NCBI GenBank assembly: GCA_947643225.1
Contig: CANRVH010000001.1
Span: 6,868-70,867 of the forward strand
Length of the DNA: 64,000 nt
From: an uncultured Clostridia bacterium
GTDB lineage: Bacteria; Bacillota_I; Bacilli_A; RF39; UBA660
Reading direction: 5' to 3'
Shown: in pieces, positions 2,690-62,030 of the stretch
How positions within the stretch are numbered: position 1 is the stretch's first letter
Layout of the letters: each line of letters opens with the position of its first letter
The notes under the pieces: generated by a model
Seen by the model: the letters and a program-made list of their open reading frames with translations, nothing else
What the model was told of the DNA's origin: nothing
Database searches by the model: none
Position numbers and translations under genes: made by a program

Positions 2690-3208
2690 ATGTATAGAAA
2701 TGATGTAGAAAGAAATTTAGGTGTATCAAGGAAACAATTAAATCATGCTATTAAAGTAATGGAAAAATATCATTATTTTGAAAATTGGATTTGGTATAAA
2801 TTAGGGCCAACTGATTTAATTGTTTTATTTAATTTAGAATTTGTTGATTGGTTAAAAGATGTATATTTTAATAAAGATGGATTTTTCTTAGACAGAGAAA
2901 TCCATTTTTTAAATGAAAAAATTAAAGATTTAGAAAATGAATTAGGTATTTCTCATTACGAGAAAAATTATCCATATCTAAATGTAAAAGAACTACAAGA
3001 ATACTTTGATAAAAGTAATAGCTCTATTTTAAAGGCAATTGAAAGAATGAATAGAAAAATTGATTGTAAATGCTATAAAGATGGAAAATTATATATTACT
3101 CCTACTGGAGTAAAATGGTTAGATCAAAACTATTATAGAAAATCATACCTTAAAGAGTTGTTAAATTATAAAAAAATACTAAATGAAAAGGAGAATAAAA
3201 ATGACTAA
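2690..3208 (+). CDS. hypothetical protein, possibly DNA-binding (element cargo)
   Basis: 172-aa ORF. The C-terminal segment VKELQEYFDKSNSSILKAIERMNRK looks HTH-like. No confident family assignment. Confidence 0.4.
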   Translation: MYRNDVERNLGVSRKQLNHAIKVMEKYHYFENWIWYKLGPTDLIVLFNLEFVDWLKDVYFNKDGFFLDREIHFLNEKIKDLENELGISHYEKNYPYLNVKELQEYFDKSNSSILKAIERMNRKIDCKCYKDGKLYITPTGVKWLDQNYYRKSYLKELLNYKKILNEKENKND

Positions 3209-3593
3209 AGTTGATAGAAGAAAGAAAATAAATATCATGTTAAATGATGAAGAAAGAAGAATAATTACAGAAAAAGCAGTTGAATATGGATTTGGTCCAC
3301 ATCTTGCTACCTATGTTAGAAGTGCTTGTATTTATGAATCTTTATATAAAGAAGATATAGAAGGTAAAAATGAAATAATTAAAATAATGAGTGATTATAT
3401 TAGTGTTGTTAATAGAATACAATATGAGCAATCACAGTTAACTAAAAAAATTATGTTAAGTGAAGGAGATATACACATGATTAAAGATAATAATACTCTT
3501 CTTCATAATGAAATAAGAAAGCTAATTAAGACAATTGAAAATACATTAACAGTTAAACGTGTAAAAGAAACTAAGCAGAAACTAAATAAATAG
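3201..3593 (+). CDS. MobC-like ribbon-helix-helix protein (mobilisation accessory type)
   Basis: RRKKINIMLNDEERRIITEKAVEYGFGPHLATYVRSACI resembles the MobC/RHH family core (R…I.VRLT.EE…L…A…G.S.S.Y.R). ATG 3201 with an AAAGGAG RBS. It overlaps the upstream ORF. Confidence 0.5.
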   Translation: MTKVDRRKKINIMLNDEERRIITEKAVEYGFGPHLATYVRSACIYESLYKEDIEGKNEIIKIMSDYISVVNRIQYEQSQLTKKIMLSEGDIHMIKDNNTLLHNEIRKLIKTIENTLTVKRVKETKQKLNK

Positions 3594-3659
3594 CTTCTGC
3601 TTTTTCTTAAAGTATTATTTTACAATTTTTCTCATAGTTTTAAATAAAGGAGATGAGTT

Positions 3660-3857
3660 ATGGATTCTAATGATATTATGAGAAGTAAAGAAGTAAAATA
3701 TAAGAATAAAGAAATACTTTTAGAAGTGGCTCTTTCCTTAAATAAAGAGTTATTTGATGAAAATAAAATTTCATATAAAATGTTTAAATATACAGAAGAA
3801 AATATTTTAAAAGAATTAAAAATTTGTAATGTAAGTGGTGCAAATGCTAATACATGA
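3660..3857 (+). CDS. small hypothetical protein immediately upstream of the serine recombinase; could be a recombination directionality factor
   Basis: 65-aa ORF with an AAGGAG RBS. The proposed role rests on position only. Confidence 0.25.
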   Translation: MDSNDIMRSKEVKYKNKEILLEVALSLNKELFDENKISYKMFKYTEENILKELKICNVSGANANT

Positions 3858-3897
3858 AAATAATATGGTATAATGCTATTAGAAAGGAGAAGAAGAG

Positions 3898-5607
3898 TTG
3901 GATTTATATACTGTTCGAAAGCAGTTAAATATGGGAATGCCACTTACAAGTATAAAATTAAGAGTAACAGATTATGCAAGAGTATCAACAGATCATTTAG
4001 AACAAAAAAAATCTCTTCAAAATCAAGTGGAACATTTTGAACAATATATAAAAGAAAATCCAAATTGGACTTATACACCTGGTTATGTAGATGATGGAAT
4101 AACTGGTACAAGTGATGTTAAAAGAGATAACTTTATGAAAATGATTGAAGATGCTAGAGGTGGTAAATTTGATTTAATAGTTACCAAAGAAATTTCTAGA
4201 TTTTCAAGAAATACTCTTGATAGTATTAAATATACAAGAGAACTTTTATCGTATGGAGTGGCTGTTTTATTTGTAAATGATAATATTAATACTGCCCTAC
4301 CTGATTCAGAACTAAGACTTACTATTATGGCTTCCATGGCACAAGATGAAATAAGAAGATTATCAGAACGTGTTAAATTTGGTATGAATCGTGCAATAGA
4401 ACGCGGAGAAATATTAGGGAATGATTTACTTTATGGTTATAAAAAAGATAAAGATACTGGAGTATTAAATATTATAGAGGAAGAAGCAAAAGTTGTTAGA
4501 AGAATTTATGAACTATATACAGTTGAAGAATTAACACTTTCTAAAATAGTTAAAACTTTAAATAGCGAAGGATTAAAAACTTGTCAAGGTAAGAAATGGT
4601 GTATATCTACAATTTCACGGATGATTGAAAATCCTAAATATAAAGGATATTATTGTGCAAGAAAATCTGAAATAGTAGATTATATGACTAAAAAGATAAA
4701 ATACTTTGAAAAAGATGATTGGGTTATTTATGAGGATAAAACAAGAATACCACCAATAATTGATGAGGATTTATGGGATAGAGCTAATAATCGTTTAATA
4801 ACAAGAAAAAAAGCATTTAGCGAACGAAAAGAGGATAAAAGTATTTATAAAAATAGATACTTATATAGTGCTAAAATATTTTGTGCTGAACACAATACAG
4901 TTTTTCATAGAAGAGAATTTAGAAAAAATAAAAAAGATATTACTTGGGTTTGTTCCGAATATTTAAAAAATGGTAAATCTAATTGTGATTCACCAAATAT
5001 TAGAGAATCTGAACTAGATTCAATTTTTAAAGATTTAATTTCTAAACTTCAAATTGATTCTAACCAAGTAGTTGAAACTCTTATGAATTATTACAAACAT
5101 TTAGAAATTGATACTGGTATAGATGAAGAAATAAGTTTGAGAGAAAAAGAAATAAATAATCTTTATGCTAAAAAAGATAAATTATTAGAACTTAGTTTAC
5201 AAGGTAGTTTATCAAATACTGAATTTTATGAAAGGAATAGTTCTTTTAATGAAAAAATTAAAGTTCTTGATAATGAACTTAATAAGTTAAAAAGTCAAAA
5301 AGATGAACTAAAAGGAACAACAGATAAAACTAAAGAACTTGCTGAAATCTTAAAACAAAAAGTTAATTCTAAATCTACAATAGATAAAATAATTAGTTCT
5401 TTACTAGAGCGTATTGTTGTATCTAAAATATGTAATGATAAAAACAATATGGAATTAAATATATTTTTATCTTACAAGGAGAATGACGAAACAAAAAAAC
5501 TACAACCTATTTTAAGAAGTAGTTATGAATTTAAAAGAGGATATGACACACAAGGAACTAAAAGATATAAGGTCAATTATCAAGTGAATTGTTATTTTTG
5601 TCTATAA
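3898..5607 (+). CDS. large serine recombinase (resolvase/invertase catalytic domain, recombinase domain and C-terminal coiled-coil)
   Basis: YARVSTDHLEQ carries the catalytic Ser. The resolvase core reads DDGITGT…FDLIVTKEISRFSRNTLD and a recombinase domain follows. At 569 aa it is typical of integrative-element integrases. TTG at 3898 with a GAAAGGAG RBS, or ATG at 3931, could be the start. A TGGTATAAT extended -10 lies at about 3866. Confidence 0.85.
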   Translation: MDLYTVRKQLNMGMPLTSIKLRVTDYARVSTDHLEQKKSLQNQVEHFEQYIKENPNWTYTPGYVDDGITGTSDVKRDNFMKMIEDARGGKFDLIVTKEISRFSRNTLDSIKYTRELLSYGVAVLFVNDNINTALPDSELRLTIMASMAQDEIRRLSERVKFGMNRAIERGEILGNDLLYGYKKDKDTGVLNIIEEEAKVVRRIYELYTVEELTLSKIVKTLNSEGLKTCQGKKWCISTISRMIENPKYKGYYCARKSEIVDYMTKKIKYFEKDDWVIYEDKTRIPPIIDEDLWDRANNRLITRKKAFSERKEDKSIYKNRYLYSAKIFCAEHNTVFHRREFRKNKKDITWVCSEYLKNGKSNCDSPNIRESELDSIFKDLISKLQIDSNQVVETLMNYYKHLEIDTGIDEEISLREKEINNLYAKKDKLLELSLQGSLSNTEFYERNSSFNEKIKVLDNELNKLKSQKDELKGTTDKTKELAEILKQKVNSKSTIDKIISSLLERIVVSKICNDKNNMELNIFLSYKENDETKKLQPILRSSYEFKRGYDTQGTKRYKVNYQVNCYFCL

Positions 5608-5637
5608 GTTAGACATATAATTTTTCACTTGGCGACT

Positions 5638-6252
5638 TCATTTTCGCGCACTTTGTTCAAATAGACATACAAAGTCACCAGTACCACCAATAAATGCACT
5701 ACTCATAGCAGCAAAACTAACAGAAGTATCAATATTAACATCTTTTTTTGGATTAAGACCAGCTTCACGAATTGCCCATTCAAGAGTCATTTCAGGCATA
5801 CCTCCAGCACGACCACCAATAATTGTTTTCCCCTTTAGATCTTCCAGTTTAAAATTATCAATTTTCTTTCTAGAAACAATAAAATTACCATCTTTTTGAG
5901 TAAGTTGAGCGAATGTTTTTAAATAATCTTTTTCCCCGCTATTATAAATATAAATAGTTGCTTCACTTCCAGAAAAACCAATATCAGCATCTCCTGCTAA
6001 AACAGCAGCAGTAACTTTATCAGCTCCAGGTGTTAAACTCAAATTAATATCAATTCCCTCGTCCCTAAAAAATCCTTTTTCAATAGCAACATATTGAGGT
6101 GCATAAAAAATTGTATGTGCAACCTCAGCTACAGTAATCTTTTTTAATTTTTCCTTTTTATCCTTTTTTTGATCATTAAAATTAAAGAATATAGCACAAA
6201 TAGCTAATAATAAAATAATAATACTAACTACATATAAAATAATTTTTTTCAA
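5638..6252 (-). CDS. NMT1/THI5 (SsuA-like) ABC-transporter substrate-binding protein, apparently truncated at the C-terminus (204 aa versus about 320 aa typical)
   Basis: Signal/anchor MKKIILYVVSIIILLLAICAIFF, then the SsuA-like fold motifs (ITVAEVAHTIFYAPQYVAIEKGFFRDEGIDINL…GDADIGFSG). The ORF stops 30 nt from the recombinase stop. Confidence 0.55.
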   Translation of the reverse strand: MKKIILYVVSIIILLLAICAIFFNFNDQKKDKKEKLKKITVAEVAHTIFYAPQYVAIEKGFFRDEGIDINLSLTPGADKVTAAVLAGDADIGFSGSEATIYIYNSGEKDYLKTFAQLTQKDGNFIVSRKKIDNFKLEDLKGKTIIGGRAGGMPEMTLEWAIREAGLNPKKDVNIDTSVSFAAMSSAFIGGTGDFVCLFEQSARK

Positions 6253-6322
6253 AATAGTCCTCCTTTCTATTTCAAAGTATTATATGCAAAAGAATAAAGA
6301 TGTGATATAAAGGCATTACTAC

Positions 6323-6351
6323 TTGCCAAATAAAAAGAAATATGCTATAAT
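6323..6351 (+). promoter_or_regulatory. sigma-70-type promoter (TTGCCA-N17-TATAAT) for the adhesin gene
   Basis: Read directly: ttgccaaataaaaagaaatatgctataat. Confidence 0.5.
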
Positions 6352-6384
6352 AAGAGACATTAAATTCGATAGGGGGATAATAGA

Positions 6385-7656
6385 ATGAAAAATAATAAAA
6401 TAACAAAAACAATGTTAGTATTACTAATTACAATTACATCATTTTTTACAACAATGAGTAATGCCTTTGCTGAAGTGCCAAATAAAATTAATGTGACATC
6501 AACACCAGCTGTCAAAGGATATATTGGAGAAAAAGTAAACTTTGGAACAAAATCATTAAATGATGGTAGTGTTGCATACTGTTTAGATTACAATAAGTTA
6601 ACTCCAGATCATGCTATTGGAACATTAGCAGGTGAAATGGATGCAGGAATGGCCTATTTAATTGAAAATGGTTATCCACATAAAACCATAACAGGAGATA
6701 AAGCAAAAGATTATTATATTACACAAGTAGCAATTTGGTGGTATTTAGATGAAACAACAGGATCAACAAACTTAACTAATGAATTTAAAACAACAGATAG
6801 TGATCCACAAAATTTAAGACCAACCATAAAAAAGCTAGTAGATAATGCCAAAATAGTTAAAAATAAAGGATACAAAAATCCAAGTCTATCAGCAACAATC
6901 ACAAATAGAAAATTAACGATCTCAACAGATAAAAAATATTATATTTCAGACGAGATAAAAGTAAATTTAACAGATTTAGAAAGTTATACAGTTTCATTAA
7001 CAACCGCACCTGAAGGAAGTTATATAGCAGATGGAAAAGGAAATAAGAAAACAACTTTCCAAAAAGGAGAAACATTTAAAGTTTATGTCAAACAAACTGA
7101 TCAAAAAATTAAAAAAAGTGATATTAAGATAAAAATTAGTGGAACAACAACAATAAATAAAGTATACAAGTATAATCCAGAAAATGATGTAGAGCAAAGA
7201 ATATTAACTGCAGTTCTTTATCCAACAACAATAAAAAAAGAACAAGATCTATCTTTGACAATCTCACCATCAAAAGTAACAATTAATAAAATTGATGCAG
7301 AAACAAAAAAAGCCTTAGCAGGGGCAGTTCTTGTAGTAAAAGACAAAGCTGGAAATATTGTTGCAGAATTTACAACAAGTGAAGAATCTTATATTATTGA
7401 AGACTTAAGTAATGGAGAATACGAAGTATCAGAAAAAAGTGCTCCCGAAGGATATATCTTAAGCGAAAAAACATATCAATTTACGATTGATGATGATAAC
7501 AGAAATCACACAGTCATATTTGAAAATTATAAAGAAATATATGTTCCAGATACAAACTCTAATAGCACAATAATGTATATACTAGGTACAATCATAATGG
7601 TATCAGGTATCTCATTTGTAATCTACAATGCTAAGAAAAAACAAATTAATAAATAA
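6385..7656 (+). CDS. thioester-domain (TED) surface adhesin with a CnaB/SpaA-type domain and a non-canonical sortase sorting signal
   Basis: Signal peptide present. The TED Cys motif AYCLDYNK and Gln motif YITQVAIWWY are both there. A CnaB-type domain reads AGAVLVVKDKAGN…EYEVSEKSAPEGY. The C-terminus is IYVPDTNSNST followed by a hydrophobic helix and a KKKQ tail. Confidence 0.75.
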   Translation: MKNNKITKTMLVLLITITSFFTTMSNAFAEVPNKINVTSTPAVKGYIGEKVNFGTKSLNDGSVAYCLDYNKLTPDHAIGTLAGEMDAGMAYLIENGYPHKTITGDKAKDYYITQVAIWWYLDETTGSTNLTNEFKTTDSDPQNLRPTIKKLVDNAKIVKNKGYKNPSLSATITNRKLTISTDKKYYISDEIKVNLTDLESYTVSLTTAPEGSYIADGKGNKKTTFQKGETFKVYVKQTDQKIKKSDIKIKISGTTTINKVYKYNPENDVEQRILTAVLYPTTIKKEQDLSLTISPSKVTINKIDAETKKALAGAVLVVKDKAGNIVAEFTTSEESYIIEDLSNGEYEVSEKSAPEGYILSEKTYQFTIDDDNRNHTVIFENYKEIYVPDTNSNSTIMYILGTIIMVSGISFVIYNAKKKQINK

Positions 7657-8299
7657 AAAGAAACATGAAGTAAGTTCTAATACGATTGCCATGATATCAA
7701 GTATTGTCATTTTATTAGGACTCTTCATTTTTTCTTATAATTATACTAAATCTAAAAAAATATTAGCCTATGAACAAATGAATAACATCTTTTATGAAGA
7801 TCATTCAAAGACAGAAAAGAAAGAAAATAAAAAACAACAAAAAGAAGAAAAAATACAAGAACAAGAGGAGAAAAAGGAAATCATCACAAATGATTACATA
7901 GGCTATTTAGAGATACCAAAAATAAAGTTAAAAAAAGGGTTTGTTAGTAAAAAATCAAGTGATAATGATGTGGAAAAAAATATCTTTATAGTAGAACAAT
8001 CTACCTATCCTGATAAAGAAAAAGGTAACTTCATTATTGCCGCACATTCAGGAACTGGCTGGAAAGCTTTCTTTAATGATTTATATCAATTAGAACAAGG
8101 TAATGAGATTTATGTTACTTATAAAAATAAAAAATATACCTATAAAATAGCAGATATTTATAAGCAGAAAAAAACAGGAACTATCGCTATATATAGAGAT
8201 TATAATAAAACAACATTAACATTAGTAACCTGCACAAACAATGATGATACATCACAGACAGTTTATATTGCTTATTTAGAAAAAATAGAAAATTTATAG
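7628..8299 (+). CDS. class B-type sortase
   Basis: N-terminal TM helix, the His motif IIAAHSG and the catalytic TLVTCT motif. It overlaps the end of the adhesin gene. An ATG at 7691 is an alternative start. Confidence 0.8.
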   Translation: MLRKNKLINKKKHEVSSNTIAMISSIVILLGLFIFSYNYTKSKKILAYEQMNNIFYEDHSKTEKKENKKQQKEEKIQEQEEKKEIITNDYIGYLEIPKIKLKKGFVSKKSSDNDVEKNIFIVEQSTYPDKEKGNFIIAAHSGTGWKAFFNDLYQLEQGNEIYVTYKNKKYTYKIADIYKQKKTGTIAIYRDYNKTTLTLVTCTNNDDTSQTVYIAYLEKIENL

Positions 8300-8315
8300 A
8301 AGGGGGGAATAAAAA

Positions 8316-9293
8316 ATGATGAATGAATTATCTCTAATAGAAAAATTTAAAGTTGTCTTTGATATTACCAAATCAAATATCGTTTATCCAATTATTATAA
8401 TTTTTTTACTAATTATCAGCTTTCTATTTATAACAACAAATAAAAATAATGCCAAAGAAAGTAAAAAAGTTTATGGAAGCCTATATGCTATTTTAATGAT
8501 AATAATTTTAATTAAATATGCGACTTCATTAAAAACAATGATAGACTATATGATGAATCATTTATTTATTGTTTTTTACTTTCCCAATATTGCCGTTTAT
8601 TTAACAGCAATCCTCATCACAAATATCATCATGTGGATCAGTATGTTTAAATCATCTACTAAAACTATAATAAAAATAATCAATGCAACAATATTTTCTA
8701 TAATTCATTACATCTTACTTTTAATCCTTGGAATCATTACAACAAAAAAGATAGACGTCTTTAATCAAAAAGCACTATATGCTAATCACGATATTCATGC
8801 TTTAATTGAATTAAGCAGTAATATTTTTATAATATGGATGATCTTTCTTATCCTTTACAAAATAATTTATACTTATCTTGAAAGCAAAAAAGGACAAAAA
8901 ATCTATGATAACCAATTACTTGCAATAGAACAAGTCCAAAAAGTAGAAAAAGAAGGAACTGTAACAATTAATCTTCCAAAAAACATTAAAGAAGTAAGAG
9001 CACCATATCTAGTAAAAAGAGAAATGTCTAAAACAAGAATTGTTTATCAATTACCAAAACAAATGGAAAATACAGCTATTTATGAACAAATGTTGACTTT
9101 AGATGATTATAAATTATTAGTTTCCCTATTAAAAGAAGAAAAAGAAAAAGGGGTAAAAACAATCTTAAATAATCAGAAACACACGATAAACAAAGAAAAA
9201 ACAGAAGAAGAAAGGTTGACCCAAAAAAACAAACAGTCCCAACCAGAAAGTGGACTATCAGAATTGATGAGATTATATAAAAGTACAAGCTAA
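8316..9293 (+). CDS. polytopic membrane protein, function unknown
   Basis: Several hydrophobic helices and a charged C-terminal tail. A G6 run lies in the RBS (aggggggaat). Confidence 0.5.
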   Translation: MMNELSLIEKFKVVFDITKSNIVYPIIIIFLLIISFLFITTNKNNAKESKKVYGSLYAILMIIILIKYATSLKTMIDYMMNHLFIVFYFPNIAVYLTAILITNIIMWISMFKSSTKTIIKIINATIFSIIHYILLLILGIITTKKIDVFNQKALYANHDIHALIELSSNIFIIWMIFLILYKIIYTYLESKKGQKIYDNQLLAIEQVQKVEKEGTVTINLPKNIKEVRAPYLVKREMSKTRIVYQLPKQMENTAIYEQMLTLDDYKLLVSLLKEEKEKGVKTILNNQKHTINKEKTEEERLTQKNKQSQPESGLSELMRLYKSTS

Positions 9294-55026: not shown

Positions 55027-55103
55027 TGGTAGCGCCGGGGAGATTCGAACTCTCGACCTATCGGGTATGAACCGATTGCTCTAGCCAACTGAGCTACAGC
55101 GCC
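55027..55103 (-). tRNA. tRNA with a CAU anticodon (elongator Met or lysidine-type Ile2), 77 nt, with an encoded CCA
   Basis: The reverse complement folds as a cloverleaf: GGCGCUG/UA/GCUC-AGUUGGCUA-GAGC/A/AUCGG-UUCAUAC-CCGAU/AGGUC/GAGAG-UUCGAAU-CUCCC/CGGCGCU/A/CCA. It has two G-U pairs in the acceptor stem and one T-stem mismatch. The anticodon-stem base lacks the three G-C pairs of an initiator. Confidence 0.85.
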
Positions 55104-56037: not shown

Positions 56038-56913
56038 ATGAAAAAAGTAATATCCATTATATTATCAATAATTATTCTAATATCATTATTAGGATTAACA
56101 ATAATTATTAATATCAATATAATAATGAAAAACAAGACAATAAGTAAAGTAGCCTCTAATATAAAATACATAGATTTAGTAAACATTAAGATGAAAGAAA
56201 ATGAACTAAAAGAAACATATGATTCAATTTATATATCATTACAACAAGAAGGAATTAGTAGAGAAAACATCAATAAAATTTATAAACAAGATTTTTTTGA
56301 AAAAATTACAACTAAAATAATTTACACAGAAGTTAAATTCTTATTAACAGGTAATATCTCAAAAACATATACAATCAATGATATAAATAACTTGATAAAA
56401 AAAGATATCGAAAAGATAAATTTGCAACAAGAAGAAAAAGAAAAAATAATAAAGATACTAAATTATAATAGTTCTAAAATATTAACAATAGAGAATATAA
56501 TTAGAAGTAATATAAATAATATTTCTCCAACAAAAATCAAAATAGTTAGATATTTTTTAAGTTATAAATTTAAGGTAATTCTACTATGTCTACTAATTAT
56601 ATGCATATTAATAGAGTTGGTATTAAATAAAGAAAGATTACTTCCATATATTTTTATTCCAACAATAATTTGTAGTTTTTTAGAACTACTAATCTCTATT
56701 TTTACACCCAAATCAATAACCACTAATATAGCAAATAAATTTCTAGAAAGTATCTTATATCCATATATAAAAATTTTTCTCAATAATCTATTATTTACAT
56801 CTTTAATTATATTAGGAATTAGTATCATTTACTTAATGGTGAACGAATCAGTGATGAAAAAAGAAAAAAGGAGATTAAAACCAAAAATCAAAAAGAAAAG
56901 ACTAGATATTTAA
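56038..56913 (+). CDS. hypothetical membrane protein (N-terminal and C-terminal TM segments, basic tail)
   Basis: 291-aa ORF, AT-rich and of low complexity. No family recognised. Confidence 0.4.
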   Translation: MKKVISIILSIIILISLLGLTIIININIIMKNKTISKVASNIKYIDLVNIKMKENELKETYDSIYISLQQEGISRENINKIYKQDFFEKITTKIIYTEVKFLLTGNISKTYTINDINNLIKKDIEKINLQQEEKEKIIKILNYNSSKILTIENIIRSNINNISPTKIKIVRYFLSYKFKVILLCLLIICILIELVLNKERLLPYIFIPTIICSFLELLISIFTPKSITTNIANKFLESILYPYIKIFLNNLLFTSLIILGISIIYLMVNESVMKKEKRRLKPKIKKKRLDI

Positions 56914-57002: not shown

Positions 57003-57440
57003 ATGGCATTAGATAAACTAAAAAATATATTTGGTGGAGAAGAAGTAGCAGAAGAAGAAGTTTCAATTGATGAAGAATTTTACTCAACATCACGTGAAAC
57101 ATATCACGAAGAAAATGGAATAGCTGGTTCCAAAATGATGTTACTAGAACCACGTGCTTATTCAGAATCACAACAAATAGCAGATTACCTAAAATCTAGA
57201 AATGCAGTAGTAGTAAATTTAAAAAGAGTAACACCAGATCAAGCAAAACGAATTGTAGATTTTTTAAGTGGAACAATATATGCAATAGGAGGAGATTTGC
57301 AAAAATTAGGTGGAGGGATCTTTTTATGTACACCAAATAATGTAAATGTAGAAGGAAAAATATCAGAAGAGACAACACCTACTAAAGCAACTACAAAATC
57401 TAAAAAAAATGAAGAAGAGGATGACGATTTTAACTGGTAA
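57003..57440 (+). CDS. sepF: cell division protein SepF
   Basis: The N-terminus [12 protein letters not shown] and the core [67 protein letters not shown] are typical of SepF/DUF552. A TGCTATAAT extended -10 lies at about 56948. Confidence 0.8.
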
Positions 57441-57695
57441 ACTAAAAATTGAATTAGGAGTCTAATAAATATAATCGTTAAGAAACAAATTGGTTTATAA
57501 GTAATGCCATAGATAAAACAAAAAAATCATTATAAATATCATGATTGGAACAGAAAATAAAAAGACTTCCTAAATATAAAGATATTTAAAAGGAAATTAA
57601 AGATAATTATACAATAGCGACAAGTAATAATAGAATAAATTGATGAACTAGAATGATCAAGTAGCGAATAGGTTGCTTGTTTTTTAATAAAATAA

Positions 57696-57724
57696 TTGAA
57701 AAGATAGAAAAATTATGTTATAGT
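57696..57724 (+). promoter_or_regulatory. promoter TTGAAA-N17-TATAGT driving the T-box leader
   Basis: Read directly: ttgaaaagatagaaaaattatgttatagt. Confidence 0.5.
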
Positions 57725-57730
57725 AACAAA

Positions 57731-57950
57731 GAAAGCAAATGCGAAAGACGAAAATATTGGAAAGTTTATAGAGAGCTTTAGTTAGGTGAAATAAAGTAAC
57801 AAGTAAAATATTTTAGATCACTTTCAAGTGCATTTTAGGGATAAGCTAAAATCGTATCTCGCGTTAAGAGAATAAAGTGTATAGAGTAGCTATAAAATAA
57901 GGTGGTACCGCGATAATTCGTCCTTAAATTTATAGCTATTTTTTAATTAA
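57731..57950 (+). promoter_or_regulatory. T-box riboswitch leader (tRNA-sensing antitermination element) upstream of the CaCA-ileS operon
   Basis: Conserved T-box sequence AAGGTGGTACCGCG at 57899-57912. The UGGU tetranucleotide would pair with an ACCA acceptor end (discriminator A, as in tRNA-Ile). The terminator helix GTAGCTATAAA…TTTATAGCTAT encloses the T-box and is followed by TTTTTT (57938-57943). An AGAGAG AG-box-like element lies at about 57770. Confidence 0.7.
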
Positions 57951-57961
57951 AAGGAGGAAAT

Positions 57962-58912
57962 ATGGTTATTCATATTATAATTTTAATTATTGGGTTTATA
58001 GTTTTAATTAAAGGAGCAGATCTATTTGTAGATGCAGCATCATCACTTGCACAAAACTTTCATTTATCAAAAATGCTAATCGCTTTAACAATCGTTGCTT
58101 TTGGTACAAGTGCCCCAGAATTTGCTGTATCAGTAAAGTCAATGATGAGTGATAGTGGAGATATTGTTCTAGGAAATGTGATTGGTAGTAATATTCTAAA
58201 TATTCTATTAATACTGGGAATATCAAGTTGCATTCATACATTAAATGTAAAAAATGCAACAGTCAAAAAAGAATTACCAATAACCATACTAATTTCAACA
58301 CTATTAATAGTTTTAATTAGCGACCAGTTTCTAGTTCATACAGCAAGTAATGCTCTGACTAGGTCAGATGGAATTATTATTCTATTATTTTTCTTAGTCT
58401 TTGTTTATTATTTATTATCAGTAATGAGAAATAAAAAAGAGGTAGAGGAAGAAAAAGCAAAATATGGAGTAATTAAATCAATTTTTTTCACCATAATAGG
58501 AATTATCTGTTTAGTATTAGGAAGTAATGCTGTTGTAGATGCAGCAAGTTTTATCGCCAAAAGCCTAGGAGTTAGTGAGAGAATGATTTCTCTTACAATA
58601 ATTGCTTTTGGTACTAGCTTACCAGAACTTGTAACTAGTATGATGGCAACAAAAAAAGGGGAGTATGATATTGCAATTGGAAATGTAGTAGGAAGTAATA
58701 TTTTTAATATTGGTATAGTACTAGGAATTCCCTTAGTAATATTTGGAACAATACCATCAATAACATTTAATTATATTGATTTATTGGTATTATTCCTCTC
58801 ATCATTTCTATTATTCGTTTTTAGTTTTAAAGATCATAAATTAAGTAGAAAAGAAGGAATAATATTTTTATTGATATTCGTAATATATTATAGTTTTGTT
58901 ATAATAGGTTAA
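57962..58912 (+). CDS. CaCA-family cation/Ca2+ antiporter (YrbG-like) membrane protein
   Basis: Two alpha-repeat signatures: GTSAPEF…GNVIGSNILNILLILG and GTSLPEL…GNVVGSNIFNIGIVLG. About ten TM helices. AGGAGG RBS. Confidence 0.8.
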   Translation: MVIHIIILIIGFIVLIKGADLFVDAASSLAQNFHLSKMLIALTIVAFGTSAPEFAVSVKSMMSDSGDIVLGNVIGSNILNILLILGISSCIHTLNVKNATVKKELPITILISTLLIVLISDQFLVHTASNALTRSDGIIILLFFLVFVYYLLSVMRNKKEVEEEKAKYGVIKSIFFTIIGIICLVLGSNAVVDAASFIAKSLGVSERMISLTIIAFGTSLPELVTSMMATKKGEYDIAIGNVVGSNIFNIGIVLGIPLVIFGTIPSITFNYIDLLVLFLSSFLLFVFSFKDHKLSRKEGIIFLLIFVIYYSFVIIG

Positions 58913-58931
58913 TCAAAAAGAGGTGACTAAA

Positions 58932-61900
58932 ATGAAATTTGAAAAATTAGATAATGGAAAAATCCACGAAGTAGAAAGTAAATTAGTTAAAAAGTGGAAA
59001 GAGATTGATATCTTAAATAAGTGTATAGACACAAAAGATCAAAAAAATAATTTTGTATTTTATGATGGACCAATTTATGCCAATGCTAAACCAGGAATAC
59101 ATCATGTTTTTGCAAAGACAATAAAAGATTCTTTTTGTAAGTTTAAAACGATGCAAGGATACAGAGTGTTAAGAAAAATAGGATTAGATACACATGGACT
59201 ACCAATTGAAGTAAATGTAGAAAAAAAATTAGGGTTTAAATCTAAAACAGACATTGAAAAATTAGGTATTGAAAAATTCTGCGAAGAATGCAAAAATGAA
59301 ACAGCAACCAATATTGATGAAGTAAAGAAAGTAACCGATATGATGGGGCAATTTATTGATTGTGATAATCCCTATGTTACCTGTAGTAATGAATTCATTG
59401 AATCTGAATGGTGGATAGTAGATCAATTAAATAAAAAAGGATTAATTTACTATGGAAATAAAGTTTTGCCTTATTGTCCTAGATGTGGAACAGAACTTGC
59501 TTCACATGAAGTTTCTCAAGGATATAAAGAAGTTTCAGTTAATACCGTTATTGTACCCTTTAAATTAGTAAATGAAGATACTTATGTTCTAGTATGGACG
59601 ACAACACCTTGGACTTTAATGGCCAATGTTAGCTTATGTGTGAATCCCAAACTAGAATATATTAAAGCATCAAGCAAAGGATACCACTTTATTGTTGCTA
59701 AAGATTTAGCAAATACTGTTTTAGGAGAAGAGTACGAAATACAAAAAACCTATCATGGAACTGATCTAGTTGGATTAAAATATGAACAATTAATGCCCTT
59801 TGTCAAAGTAGAAGGGAAAGCCTTTGAAATTCTTGCTGATGACTATGTTACCGCAAGTGATGGTACAGGAATTGTCCATATCGCTCCTGCTTATGGAGTA
59901 GACGATAATAGAGTAGCAACGAATGCGAATATTACTTTTATTAATCCAGTCGGAAAAGATGGTTGTTATACTGAAGGACCTTGGCAAGGAAGATTAGTAA
60001 CTGATCCTGAATTAGAAATCGATATTATTAAATACCTAAAAGAAGAAGATAAACTATTTAAAAAAATGAAAATAGTACATGATTATCCACATTGTTGGAG
60101 ATGTAAGCAACCACTAGTTTATTATGCAAAACCAGCTTGGTATGTTAAAAATACAGCATATAAAGAACAGATTATCGAAGAGAATAACAAAATCAATTGG
60201 TATCCTAACTATGTTGGTGAAAAACGGTTTAAGAACTGGCTTGAAAATATGATTGATTGGGGAATTTCTAGAAATCGTTATTGGGGATGCCCACTGCCAA
60301 TATGGACTTGTTGCTGCGGGCACTTTGAAACAATAGGTTCCCGTAGAGAATTAAAAGATAAAGCACTTGAAGAGATTGATATCGAAAGTCTAGAACTTCA
60401 TCGACCTTATGTTGATCAAATTCATATCAAGTGTTCAGAATGTGGAAAAAGTATGAATCGTGTACTAGATGTAATGGATGTTTGGTTTGATTCTGGAGCT
60501 ATGCCATATGGACAGTACCATTATCCTTTTGAAAATAAAGAATTGTTGGAAACCCAATTTCCAGCTGACTTTATTGCAGAAGGAGTTGATCAAACTCGTG
60601 GTTGGTTTTATGTACTTTTAGTTTTATCTACACTAATTAGTGGCAAATCCAGCTTTAAAAATGTTGTAGTTAATGATATGATGCTAGATGCTCATGGAAA
60701 AAAAATGAGTAAATCTGTAGGAAATATTATTAATCCAATAGAAATTATGACAGAATATGGAGCAGATACAATTAGATTTTATATGCTATATACATCTCCA
60801 GTTTGGACTCCTCTTAGATTCGATGAAAATGGTGTCAAAGAAGTCTATTCCAAATACATATCTACCTTTAAGAATGCTTATTCTTTCTTTGAAATGTATG
60901 CCAATGCCGATCATATTGATCCAAGAGAGTATAATATTCCAGTAGAAAAACGTGAGCTTATAGATAGATGGCTACTTTCTAAACTAAACAAATTAGTTAA
61001 AAATGTTACACATGCATTAGAAGAATATGATCTAAATAAAGCAACTAAGTTGATTGTTCCATTTCTAAATGATGATTTATCTAATTGGTATATTAGAAGT
61101 AATAGAAGAAGATTTTGGGATTCATCCCTTACAGATAGTAAAAAAGCTGTTTATTTAACTACTTATGAAGTTCTAACTACACTATGTAAGCTATGTGCTC
61201 CAATTACTCCATTTTTAACAGAGGAAATTTATCAAAAATTAACGAATGAGGAATCTGTTCATTTAGCAGATTATCCTATATGTCAAGAAAACCTAATAGA
61301 TGTAGAAACAGAAGAAAGAATGGATTTGGTAAGAGATATTTGTTCATTAGGAAGATATGCCCGTGAAGAAGTCAATATCAAAGTTCGCCAACCAATTAGA
61401 AATCTAATTTTACCAGCTAATAATCAAATCGTTTTAAAAGATCTTATTAGTGCAATAAAAGAAGAATTAAATGTAAAAAACATCGAATTTAAAGAAGATA
61501 TGAGTGACTATCTAGAATATATTGTCAAACCAAATTTTAAAGAACTAGGTCGTACCTTAGGACCAAAAATTAAACGATTACAAGAAATTGTTAAAGACTT
61601 TAGAAATGAGGAAGTAGAAAAAATAAAAAATGGAGGATTAGAAATCAATTTAGATGGTGAAAAATTAACCTTAACAGAAGAAACAGTCATCATTTCCTTA
61701 AAACAAAAAGATGGTTATGCATCATGTAGCAATGAAAAAACTTGTGTTGTTTTAGATACGAATTTAGATGATGAATTAATATTAGAAGGGCTTGCTAGAG
61801 AAATGATTCGTACAATTCAAAGTTTAAGAAAAGATGCTGATTTTGTTATTACTGATCATATCAAAGTTTATTATCAAGGAGATGAAGATATTGATAAAAT

Positions 61901-62030
61901 GTTAGAGTCTTATCAAGAATATGTAAAACAAGAAACACTTGCAGAAGAAATCATCAAAAAGGAAGATTTAACATCAGAAGAACAAGATTTAAATCATCAT
62001 CAATGTAAAATTATAGTAGAGAAAATATAG
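58932..62030 (+). CDS. ileS: isoleucyl-tRNA synthetase (type-2/eukaryote-like architecture, no C-terminal zinc finger)
   Basis: Class I aaRS with KMSKS (KMSKSVGN), a CP1 editing domain, TIKD after the HIGH-region (GIHH variant) and WISRNRYWG typical of IleS. The ORF track starts at GTG 58923. ATG 58932 with a GAGGTG RBS is preferred. Confidence 0.9.
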   Translation: MKFEKLDNGKIHEVESKLVKKWKEIDILNKCIDTKDQKNNFVFYDGPIYANAKPGIHHVFAKTIKDSFCKFKTMQGYRVLRKIGLDTHGLPIEVNVEKKLGFKSKTDIEKLGIEKFCEECKNETATNIDEVKKVTDMMGQFIDCDNPYVTCSNEFIESEWWIVDQLNKKGLIYYGNKVLPYCPRCGTELASHEVSQGYKEVSVNTVIVPFKLVNEDTYVLVWTTTPWTLMANVSLCVNPKLEYIKASSKGYHFIVAKDLANTVLGEEYEIQKTYHGTDLVGLKYEQLMPFVKVEGKAFEILADDYVTASDGTGIVHIAPAYGVDDNRVATNANITFINPVGKDGCYTEGPWQGRLVTDPELEIDIIKYLKEEDKLFKKMKIVHDYPHCWRCKQPLVYYAKPAWYVKNTAYKEQIIEENNKINWYPNYVGEKRFKNWLENMIDWGISRNRYWGCPLPIWTCCCGHFETIGSRRELKDKALEEIDIESLELHRPYVDQIHIKCSECGKSMNRVLDVMDVWFDSGAMPYGQYHYPFENKELLETQFPADFIAEGVDQTRGWFYVLLVLSTLISGKSSFKNVVVNDMMLDAHGKKMSKSVGNIINPIEIMTEYGADTIRFYMLYTSPVWTPLRFDENGVKEVYSKYISTFKNAYSFFEMYANADHIDPREYNIPVEKRELIDRWLLSKLNKLVKNVTHALEEYDLNKATKLIVPFLNDDLSNWYIRSNRRRFWDSSLTDSKKAVYLTTYEVLTTLCKLCAPITPFLTEEIYQKLTNEESVHLADYPICQENLIDVETEERMDLVRDICSLGRYAREEVNIKVRQPIRNLILPANNQIVLKDLISAIKEELNVKNIEFKEDMSDYLEYIVKPNFKELGRTLGPKIKRLQEIVKDFRNEEVEKIKNGGLEINLDGEKLTLTEETVIISLKQKDGYASCSNEKTCVVLDTNLDDELILEGLAREMIRTIQSLRKDADFVITDHIKVYYQGDEDIDKMLESYQEYVKQETLAEEIIKKEDLTSEEQDLNHHQCKIIVEKI

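Follow-up and report, generated by a model that had tools for sequence, protein, structure and literature searches.

The stretch analysed here, referred to as the window, comprises 64,000 nucleotides (nt) of contig CANRVH010000001.1 (assembly GCA_947643225.1, positions 6,868 to 70,867 of the forward strand) from an uncultured Clostridia bacterium and has a G+C content of 26%. At position 57696 of the window begins a predicted operon in which a promoter and an isoleucine-specific T-box leader with an intrinsic terminator are followed by a gene for a CaCA-superfamily cation exchanger and then by ileS, which encodes an isoleucyl-tRNA synthetase (IleRS). By sequence and structure, the leader is confirmed as a genuine isoleucine-sensing T-box. 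The families of the T-box and of both proteins are known, while the composition of the operon throughout a lineage of gut Bacilli and the variant designs of its terminator are new. The elements of the operon, in window coordinates, are the following:

57696-57724, + strand: promoter, with a -35 box TTGAAA, a 17-nt spacer and a TG-extended -10 box TATAGT (10 of 12 consensus matches)
57735-57944, + strand: transcriptional T-box leader including the terminator, 210 nt
57735-57928, + strand: T-box leader RNA (Rfam RF00230) with Stem I, Stem II, IIA/B element, Stem III and antiterminator
57817-57819, + strand: specifier AUC (isoleucine), with the purine A next to it at 57820, read from the cmscan alignment
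57880-57894, + strand: Stem III (UAUAG/CUAUA) within the RRRxG-Stem III-AA motif (57875-57896), which has AAGUG 5' and AA 3' of the stem
57887-57944, + strand: intrinsic terminator, a 10-bp basal stem (57887-57896/57929-57938) around the antiterminator, then six U residues (U6, 57939-57944)
57898-57926, + strand: antiterminator, with helix A1 (UAAGG/CCUUA), the 7-nt bulge UGGUACC (57903-57909) and helix A2 (GCGA/UCGU, 57910-57921) with a G-U pair at its base
57950-57957, + strand: strong ribosome-binding site (RBS) of the exchanger gene, AAAGGAGG, read from the sequence
57962-58912, + strand: CaCA-superfamily cation exchanger, NCX_Mj-like, 316 amino acids (aa), first cistron
58917-58925, + strand: RBS of ileS, AAGAGGTGA, read from the sequence, inside the 19-nt gap between the two genes
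58932-62030, + strand: ileS, type-2 (eukaryote-like, MupA/MupB-like) isoleucyl-tRNA synthetase, 1032 aa, second cistron

The isoleucine-specific leader and the two genes behind it

In a 561-nt search (57440-58000) the RF00230 model matches 57735-57928 along its full length (model positions 1-219) with 88.0 bits and E = 8e-20. A scan of the whole window with Rfam at the gathering threshold returned no T-box, only a tRNA, because the score of this leader lies below the gathering score, which is a curation threshold and not a structural feature. Among 14 orthologous leaders, eight score 96.7-124.9 bits and the others remain under the threshold. Thus, the assignment to RF00230 is safe, though routine annotation would miss the window copy, and the covariance-model check that an earlier sequence-only reading of this DNA had proposed came out in favour of a T-box. 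Compensatory double changes are found in 21 of the 35 base pairs that RNAalifold predicts for 17 orthologous leaders, with such changes present in the helices of both Stem I and Stem II.

In the RF00230 alignment, UUAG-AUC-A forms the 3' side of the specifier loop. The sequence A-T-C-A is invariant in all 17 aligned genome leaders, and ATCAYT stands at the expected place in 80 of the 82 readable metagenome leaders among the matches listed, the two others being short contigs with unrelated upstream sequence. The distal elements of Stem I, AGAGA and GGUGAAA, align to the model as the AG bulge and the distal loop platform. At the base of Stem I (57735-57760 and 57815-57830) the leader lacks five model positions (gaUGA), has other sequence in place of AGUA and carries UUA for GAA, and these departures from the K-turn and S-turn sequences explain part of the sub-threshold Rfam score. 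The classical GAUGA...UGAUG form is kept in L013, L017 and L018 (L numbers denote individual loci), which have the highest RF00230 scores.

The RRRxG...AA flanks of Stem III correspond to the motif described in PMC7583486. The T-box sequence, AAGGUGGUACCGCG, lies at 57899-57912 and is invariant in 17 orthologues, while the bulge between helices A1 and A2 fits the 5'-UGGN-ACC-3' pattern of T-box leaders, so that its UGGU would pair with the ACCA 3' end of a tRNA. Bacterial tRNA-Ile carries A73 as discriminator base. The T-box, the promoter and the isoleucine specifier AUC, the last expected but not read with confidence in the sequence-only reading, are thereby all located. At locus L020 a second, unrelated T-box (GGUGGCACCGCG) occurs at 823-944, about 4 kb upstream of the ileS leader.

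The promoter at 57696-57724 is the top-scoring promoter-like site of the region, and its extended -10 box (TGnTATAnT) together with a TTGnnn -35 box is kept in 14 of 19 orthologous leaders. At L012, L013, L017, L018 and L022 the leader starts right behind the stop codon of divIVA, the 70 nt inspected upstream hold no recognisable promoter for it, and transcription of the leader may originate there from the divIVA promoter.

The first cistron encodes a protein with two Na_Ca_ex repeats (Pfam PF01699, E = 1.8e-67, 226.4 bits against a cut-off of 24.9), which passes the NCBIfam calcium/sodium antiporter model TIGR00367 (233.1 bits, cut-off 179.65) and fails the equivalog model of Escherichia coli YrbG, NF008005 (210.6 against 432 bits). 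The earlier description of a CaCA-family, YrbG-like antiporter thus stands for the family, and YrbG-like applies at family level only. No family other than CaCA is matched in Pfam or NCBIfam. The closest solved relative is NCX_Mj (MJ0091 of Methanocaldococcus jannaschii, in the YRBG/MJ0091 branch, TIGR00367), which aligns over the full length with E = 7.5e-40. As in NCX_Mj, two alpha-repeats with the patterns GTSxPE and GNxxGSN are present, reading GTSAPE/GNVIGSN and GTSLPE/GNVVGSN. The ion-coordinating residues of NCX_Mj, which we take to be A47, T50, S51, E54, S77, N81, A206, T209, S210, E213, S236 and D240, were checked for numbering on the alignment of the two proteins. Eleven of the twelve are identical in the exchanger, and the position of D240 is occupied by Asn. 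The same pattern is displayed by nearly all relatives and by two distant outgroup CaCA proteins. In contrast to NCX_Mj, in addition to the Asn substitution, the exchanger gene is embedded in a T-box operon. The protein would be a cation exchanger, with an amino-acid carrier being unlikely and the transported ions predicted from the conserved sites.

Isoleucine makes up 16.1% of the exchanger (51 Ile codons, of which 4 are AUC); its share among 13,750 sampled residues of window proteins is 10.0%. An isoleucine-rich protein would thus be induced when charging of tRNA-Ile is low. Membrane proteins encoded in AT-rich DNA typically have such a content, and no conclusion is drawn from it. The best 120 of thousands of homologues are 72-100% identical and come from gut metagenomes, with one, from a Bacilli bacterium, named calcium/sodium antiporter. 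Two homologues, P0008 (410 aa) and P0040 (478 aa), are longer through internal repeated segments and are probably assembly chimeras, not real fusions.

The second cistron encodes an IleRS with the Pfam domains tRNA-synt_1, Anticodon_1 and DUF5915 (PF19302, E = 3.8e-56) that passes TIGR00392 ileS with 915 bits (cut-off 621). It is most similar to the MupA/MupB models but falls under their 'exception' cut-offs, and no type-1 synthetase gene (ileS1) is visible in the 64-kb window. As the sequence-only reading had it, ileS follows directly after the exchanger gene; with its ATG at 58932 the gap measures 19 nt and not the 20 nt given there. The positions and sequences quoted in that reading are otherwise right. 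In this gap the terminator scan found no terminator-like site, and the nhmmer profile found no second T-box between the two genes. Promoter-like hexamer pairs number 48 in the region against 39.8 +/- 7.3 in shuffled sequences, which is no enrichment, and no promoter belonging to ileS itself is detectable. A separate promoter or terminator between antiporter and synthetase, the finding that would have spoken for independent transcription, is thus not apparent in either search, and both genes are predicted to be transcribed into one mRNA.

Conservation and origin of the arrangement

A scan with one genome per species yielded 26 loci, nearly all from metagenome-assembled genomes of uncultured Bacilli from animal and human guts. 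The T-box, the CaCA gene and ileS occur together in 18 of the 24 close genome loci. The leader profile places a T-box directly 5' of the exchanger gene in 18 loci and in the window, and near no other exchanger gene. The conserved order in these 18 species-level genomes is sepF-(divIVA)-T-box-CaCA-ileS, in agreement with two exact-protein look-ups of relatives, where SepF, DivIVA, a gap of about 330 nt, Na_Ca_ex and IleRS2 succeed one another. The synthetase gene follows the CaCA gene in all 18 T-box loci, as a type-2 enzyme (IleRS2) in 16 (54-73% identity) and as a type-1 enzyme (IleRS1) in L013 and L018. The gap between exchanger gene and ileS is 10-38 nt in 15 genome loci and 129 nt in L017; it is longer in L018, which holds a gene remnant, and in L008, which holds an extra open reading frame (ORF).

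The metagenomes display the same arrangement. A pattern consisting of the T-box core and, 90-115 nt further on, the KGAD codons of the exchanger matched at least 120 loci, of which at least 88 contigs are T-box-exchanger junctions. In all 60 contigs among the matches listed that contain the full exchanger gene and at least 700 nt downstream, ileS2 follows, and a T-box-CaCA unit lacking ileS was found in none of these 60 informative contigs. Candidates for an exception turned out to be contig ends, small extra ORFs or chimeric contigs. Thus, the question whether the antiporter is conserved between leader and ileS in relatives, raised as a check by the sequence-only reading, is answered in the affirmative across the lineage, in 18 genomes and at least 88 contigs. 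The small extra ORFs before ileS measure 186 aa in L090, 58 aa in L092/L085, 58 aa in L111 and 122 aa in L135. In L008 the CaCA gene is tandemly duplicated (3742-4707 and 5001-5948), one copy lying 5' of the promoter and T-box and the other inside the operon, and a 179-aa ORF (5959-6498) with no function assigned stands between the CaCA gene and ileS.

Six CaCA copies are located elsewhere (L004, L021, L009, L023, L024 and L008a), and the leader profile assigns a T-box to none of them; L008a is the upstream copy in L008. In a neighbour-joining tree of CaCA proteins these six unlinked copies nest inside the linked clade, while L020 and L022, the most divergent of the linked copies (54% identity), are basal. 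The synthetase has also changed. L018 retains a 56-codon 5' fragment of ileS2 that ends in a stop codon (2323-2495), upstream of ileS1 (2705-5407), and in L013 the type-1 IleRS lies at 5926-8652 behind the CaCA gene. The remnant in L018 indicates that the synthetase was replaced in place while the leader and the exchanger stayed. The simplest history would be a single insertion of the exchanger gene between ileS and its ancestral leader, after which relocations or duplications occurred occasionally.

It is likely that the leader descends from an ancestral isoleucine-specific, transcription-attenuating T-box of ileS, and that an NCX_Mj-type exchanger gene was inserted as first cistron in the ancestor of this lineage of AT-rich gut Bacilli. 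Given that the layout is conserved across the lineage, the exchanger has most likely travelled in the ileS operon as a passenger for a long time. Several observations weigh against this account. The arrangement has been kept over a divergence down to about 54% identity, through the replacement of ileS and through ORF insertions, so that the co-regulation could be selected and not neutral. The neighbour-joining tree carries no support values. The leader of the window scores 5 bits under the RF00230 gathering score of 93, its K-turn and S-turn regions are atypical, and a tRNA-Ile(GAU) gene for comparison of the discriminator base was found neither in the window nor in the ten loci searched. Promoter-like matches are as common as in shuffles, and a weak promoter inside the CaCA gene is possible in DNA of 26% G+C, the single mRNA and the response to tRNA being predictions from the DNA.

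The conservation of the arrangement from 54% to 100% CaCA identity, in 18 genomes and at least 88 contigs, may also be taken to mean that the exchanger is a selected member of an isoleucine/tRNA-charging regulon, its coupling to translational demand or starvation being adaptive in reduced gut Bacilli. The arrangement has outlived the in-place replacement of ileS2 by ileS1 as well as the arrival of additional ORFs in the interval from the CaCA gene to ileS. After the tandem duplication in L008, one CaCA copy lies within the T-box operon and one outside it. However, at least three departures of the CaCA gene from the operon have occurred, none of them with a T-box, the T-box-CaCA unit without ileS is absent from the 60 informative contigs among the matches listed, and the literature searched yielded no known physiological connection of Ca2+/Na+ exchange with the charging of tRNA-Ile. 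A neutral insertion would also persist if its excision harmed the leader of an essential gene. Adaptive coupling is therefore considered unlikely, and the passenger reading is retained.

It is also conceivable that a promoter that escaped recognition, within the 3' part of the CaCA gene, is the main source of ileS transcription, the T-box in practice controlling the exchanger only. Promoter-like hexamers are abundant in AT-rich DNA, for example GTGAGA-16-AATAAT at 58575-58602, and the distance to ileS is extended by the 129-nt gap of L017 and by the extra ORFs of L008, L090, L092 and L111. Against separate regulation stand the lack of enrichment of promoter-like sites over shuffles (48 against 39.8 +/- 7.3) and the gap of 10-38 nt, with no terminator, in most loci, which leave it very little probability.

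An amino-acid role of the antiporter, such as uptake or export of isoleucine or other branched-chain amino acids, was the second of two alternatives offered by the sequence-only reading, the first being a passenger in the ileS operon. Homologues of NhaC-family antiporters in T-box regulons have been re-annotated from their specifier (PMC2494555), a comparable debate surrounds NhaC under lysine riboswitches (PMC11477304), and the exchanger gene is the first cistron behind an isoleucine-specific T-box. However, the T-box is fully explained by ileS, which follows in 60 of 60 contigs among the matches listed, no T-box dedicated to the exchanger occurs among these loci, its close orthologues outside the operon lack a T-box, the ion-site residues of NCX_Mj are kept (11 of 12, with Asn for D240) in this protein as in T-box-free outgroup CaCA proteins, and CaCA is absent from the catalogued families of T-box transporters (PMC2494555). 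The amino-acid role is thus given very little probability. Of the two alternatives the passenger is favoured by the absence of T-box-CaCA units on their own from the 60 contigs among the matches listed, by the unlinked copies without T-box and by the preserved ion sites.

Three terminator designs in orthologous leaders

The terminator of the window leader consists of a single hairpin ahead of the U-run (-20.1 kcal/mol; z = -3.7 against shuffles), inside which A1, the bulge and A2 remain intact. The arm proximal to the U-run, 57929-57938 (UUUAUAGCUA), pairs with 57887-57896 (UAGCUAUAAA), which comprises the Stem III loop, the 3' strand of that stem and the flanking AA. The inner hairpin arms are AGCUAUAAA (57888-57896) and UUUAUAGCU (57929-57937), followed by an A and then by U6. 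Stem III (57880-57884/57890-57894) and the basal stem are consequently mutually exclusive, with calculated energies of -7.4 kcal/mol for Stem III with A1 and A2 (the ON state) and -16.2 kcal/mol for the basal stem with A1 and A2 (the OFF state). Canonical terminators take their 5' strand from the 3' strands of A1 and A2 (PMC7583486). In contrast, the arm of the window captures the 3' strand of Stem III. Its duplex energy is -11.8 kcal/mol with the Stem III side (3' strand and linker) and 0.0 with the 3' strand of the antiterminator, so no competition of the canonical A1/A2 kind is displayed by this terminator. The sequence-only reading had described a terminator helix that sequesters the T-box. 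This is correct in that the hairpin encloses the T-box, but A1, A2 and the bulge stay folded and it is Stem III that is destroyed instead.

The duplex energies of the arm with either partner, the Stem III side or the 3' strand of the antiterminator, divide the orthologous leaders cleanly into two classes. Class A is marked by energies of -6.6 to -11.8 kcal/mol between the arm and the Stem III side, against 0 to -4 kcal/mol between the arm and the antiterminator 3' strand. It includes the window, L001, L003, L005-7, L012, L018, L019, L022 and L030-32 and at least 48 metagenome loci, among which 21 arm pairs are distinct. Class B is canonical, with -0.8 to -4.5 kcal/mol for the Stem III side and -8.8 to -17.3 kcal/mol for the antiterminator 3' strand in genome loci. 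It has, besides the metagenome loci, ten members (L002, L008, L010, L011, L013, L014, L016, L017, L020 and L027) and comprises at least 34 metagenome loci with 26 distinct arm pairs. Five metagenome loci among the matches listed are left ambiguous by the energy rule. Four of them (L063, L111, L115 and L139) fold as a third class, C. Here the arm, for example GGUAUCACU or GUACCAUCU, finds its complement in the T-box 5' strand, AGGUGGUACC, tRNA-binding bulge included, and helix A2 stays in place. The fifth, L123, has an arm like that of class C and its fold ended at an earlier U-run; it probably belongs to class C. Thus, the orthologous leaders use three different terminator designs, in which Stem III, the 3' strands of A1/A2 or the 5' strand of the T-box is captured. 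The approximately 20 unrelated genuine T-boxes found by the same metagenome pattern, among the matches listed, are all canonical class B, and the class A terminator therefore seems particular to this lineage, the sample being small.

Shuffled class A arms attain the observed energies in 0-15 of 1000 trials, and in divergent leaders the strongest pairing of each arm is with its own partner. The MAFFT alignment of the terminator region had register shifts, and 31 class A leaders were therefore realigned with a purpose-built covariance model before pairs were counted. In this alignment, which is fitted to the terminator structure, 94.9% of terminator cells are paired, compared with 32-51% when the partners are slid. 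The basal stem and A1 helix carry double changes in 8 of 15 pairs, the observed values being reached by none of 500 shuffles. In 29 distinct class A leaders of the same structure-fitted alignment, 94.8% of Stem III cells are paired. The closing pair of Stem III (6-21) is C-G in 13 and U-A in 12, and the same column also covaries with its terminator partner. Covariation of both Stem III and the basal stem is the signature of two alternative helices under selection. A decaying T-box with constitutive leaky termination and no tRNA response, as might be read from the 88.0 bits against a gathering score of 93 and from terminator and antiterminator helices that are not mutually exclusive, has practically negligible probability in view of this signature of a maintained switch, of the intact specifier, bulge, G-U sensor pair and Stem III flanks, invariant over deep divergence, and of the read-through that an essential gene needs.

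A mechanism can be outlined from these elements, in which both the response to tRNA and the order of the strand-swap events are predicted. Transcription would begin at the extended -10 promoter (57696-57724), after which Stem I would present AUC to the anticodon of tRNA-Ile and the UGGU of the bulge would pair with the tRNA's 3' terminus. Uncharged tRNA-Ile would hold the discriminator of Stem III, A1 and A2 together and allow read-through into one CaCA-ileS mRNA. When no uncharged tRNA is bound, the arm at 57929-57938, which mimics the 5' strand of Stem III, would displace that strand and capture the Stem III 3' strand and its AA flank, giving the 10-bp basal stem, the long hairpin at U6 and termination. 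The class A decision would thus be made through the Stem III/purine latch of the discriminator and not by shearing helix A1, and the levels of exchanger and synthetase would move together with the charging of tRNA-Ile. The joint reading, in which the OFF state keeps A1-bulge-A2 and strand-swaps Stem III, the three terminator designs are interchangeable and the exchanger is a lineage-wide member of the tRNA-Ile regulon, is put forward tentatively, at somewhat below even odds. No description of a Stem III strand-swap terminator was found in the T-box literature searched, which is not a claim that the literature is silent on it.

Related systems and the upstream region

The window leader resembles class I ileS T-box leaders of Bacillota (RF00230; for example Bacillus ileS downstream of divIVA) in its position after sepF/divIVA, in the AG bulge and distal loop of Stem I, the AUC specifier with a purine, Stem II and the IIA/B element with CGUUA, the RRRxG...AA flanks of Stem III, the bulge UGGUACC, the G-U pair at the base of A2 and the terminator with its U-run. 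It differs from them in having a CaCA exchanger and not a synthetase as the first gene behind it, in its score 5 bits below threshold and in its atypical K-turn/S-turn. On the side of the synthetase, the nearest comparison is ileS2 of Priestia megaterium, which encodes a type-2, mupirocin-tolerant IleRS behind a T-box (bioRxiv 10.1101/2022.02.09.479832). Both are IleRS2 enzymes with the C-terminal DUF5915 domain under an isoleucine T-box, but the gene of the window lies at the conserved housekeeping locus after sepF/divIVA, with the CaCA gene between leader and synthetase.

The transporter families under T-box regulation are ABC, APC, DAACS, LIVCS, MFS, NHAC and NSS, CaCA not being included (Wels et al. 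2008, PMC2494555), and no report of a CaCA or calcium antiporter gene under T-box control was found in the literature searched. The T-box-regulated NhaC homologues are similar in that a transporter annotated as a cation antiporter stands directly behind the T-box. Those NhaC and other transporters are stand-alone targets that have been re-predicted as amino-acid carriers (PMC2494555). In contrast, the cognate synthetase gene stands behind the exchanger gene in 60 of 60 contigs among the matches listed, and the exchanger keeps its cation-binding residues. Transporters encoded behind a T-box are commonly annotated from its specifier, and such 'guilt by T-box' would mislead for the exchanger of this lineage. 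Several orthologous leaders, that of the window included, score under the Rfam gathering score and are missed by routine annotation. A level of Ca2+/Na+ exchanger tied to the charging of tRNA-Ile in gut Bacilli would be an unexpected and testable coupling. The orthologous leaders themselves amount to a natural experiment, in which one aptamer and discriminator are combined with three terminator designs. Structural work of 2019 reportedly found Stem III indispensable for sensing the tRNA 3' end, and the design that targets Stem III offers a direct route to apportion the switch between Stem III and helix A1.

Upstream of the promoter lies the end of a cell-division cluster with the following features:

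57003-57440, + strand: sepF (Pfam PF04472 SepF, E = 1.4e-28), the final intact gene of the upstream cell-division cluster
57446-57665, + strand: divIVA remnants, about 26 N-terminal and about 31 C-terminal codons with an internal deletion
57658-57685, + strand: terminator-like hairpin and U-run from the terminator scan, an 8-bp stem followed by TTTTTT, closing the sepF/divIVA unit

In most relatives sepF also sits 5' of the T-box. The intact DivIVA of relative L030 matches the window in tblastn at 57446-57523 and 57573-57665, within some 250 nt that separate sepF from the T-box promoter, and close relatives have an intact divIVA at the same place (a 145-aa DivIVA). The remnants in the window could be either true gene decay or an assembly artefact. 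Further upstream, a gene for a predicted membrane protein of 291 aa (56038-56913, + strand) has no Pfam or NCBIfam match and is kept in L019 with 57% identity, and a tRNA-Met (CAU) gene (55027-55103, - strand) lies on the strand opposite to the operon.

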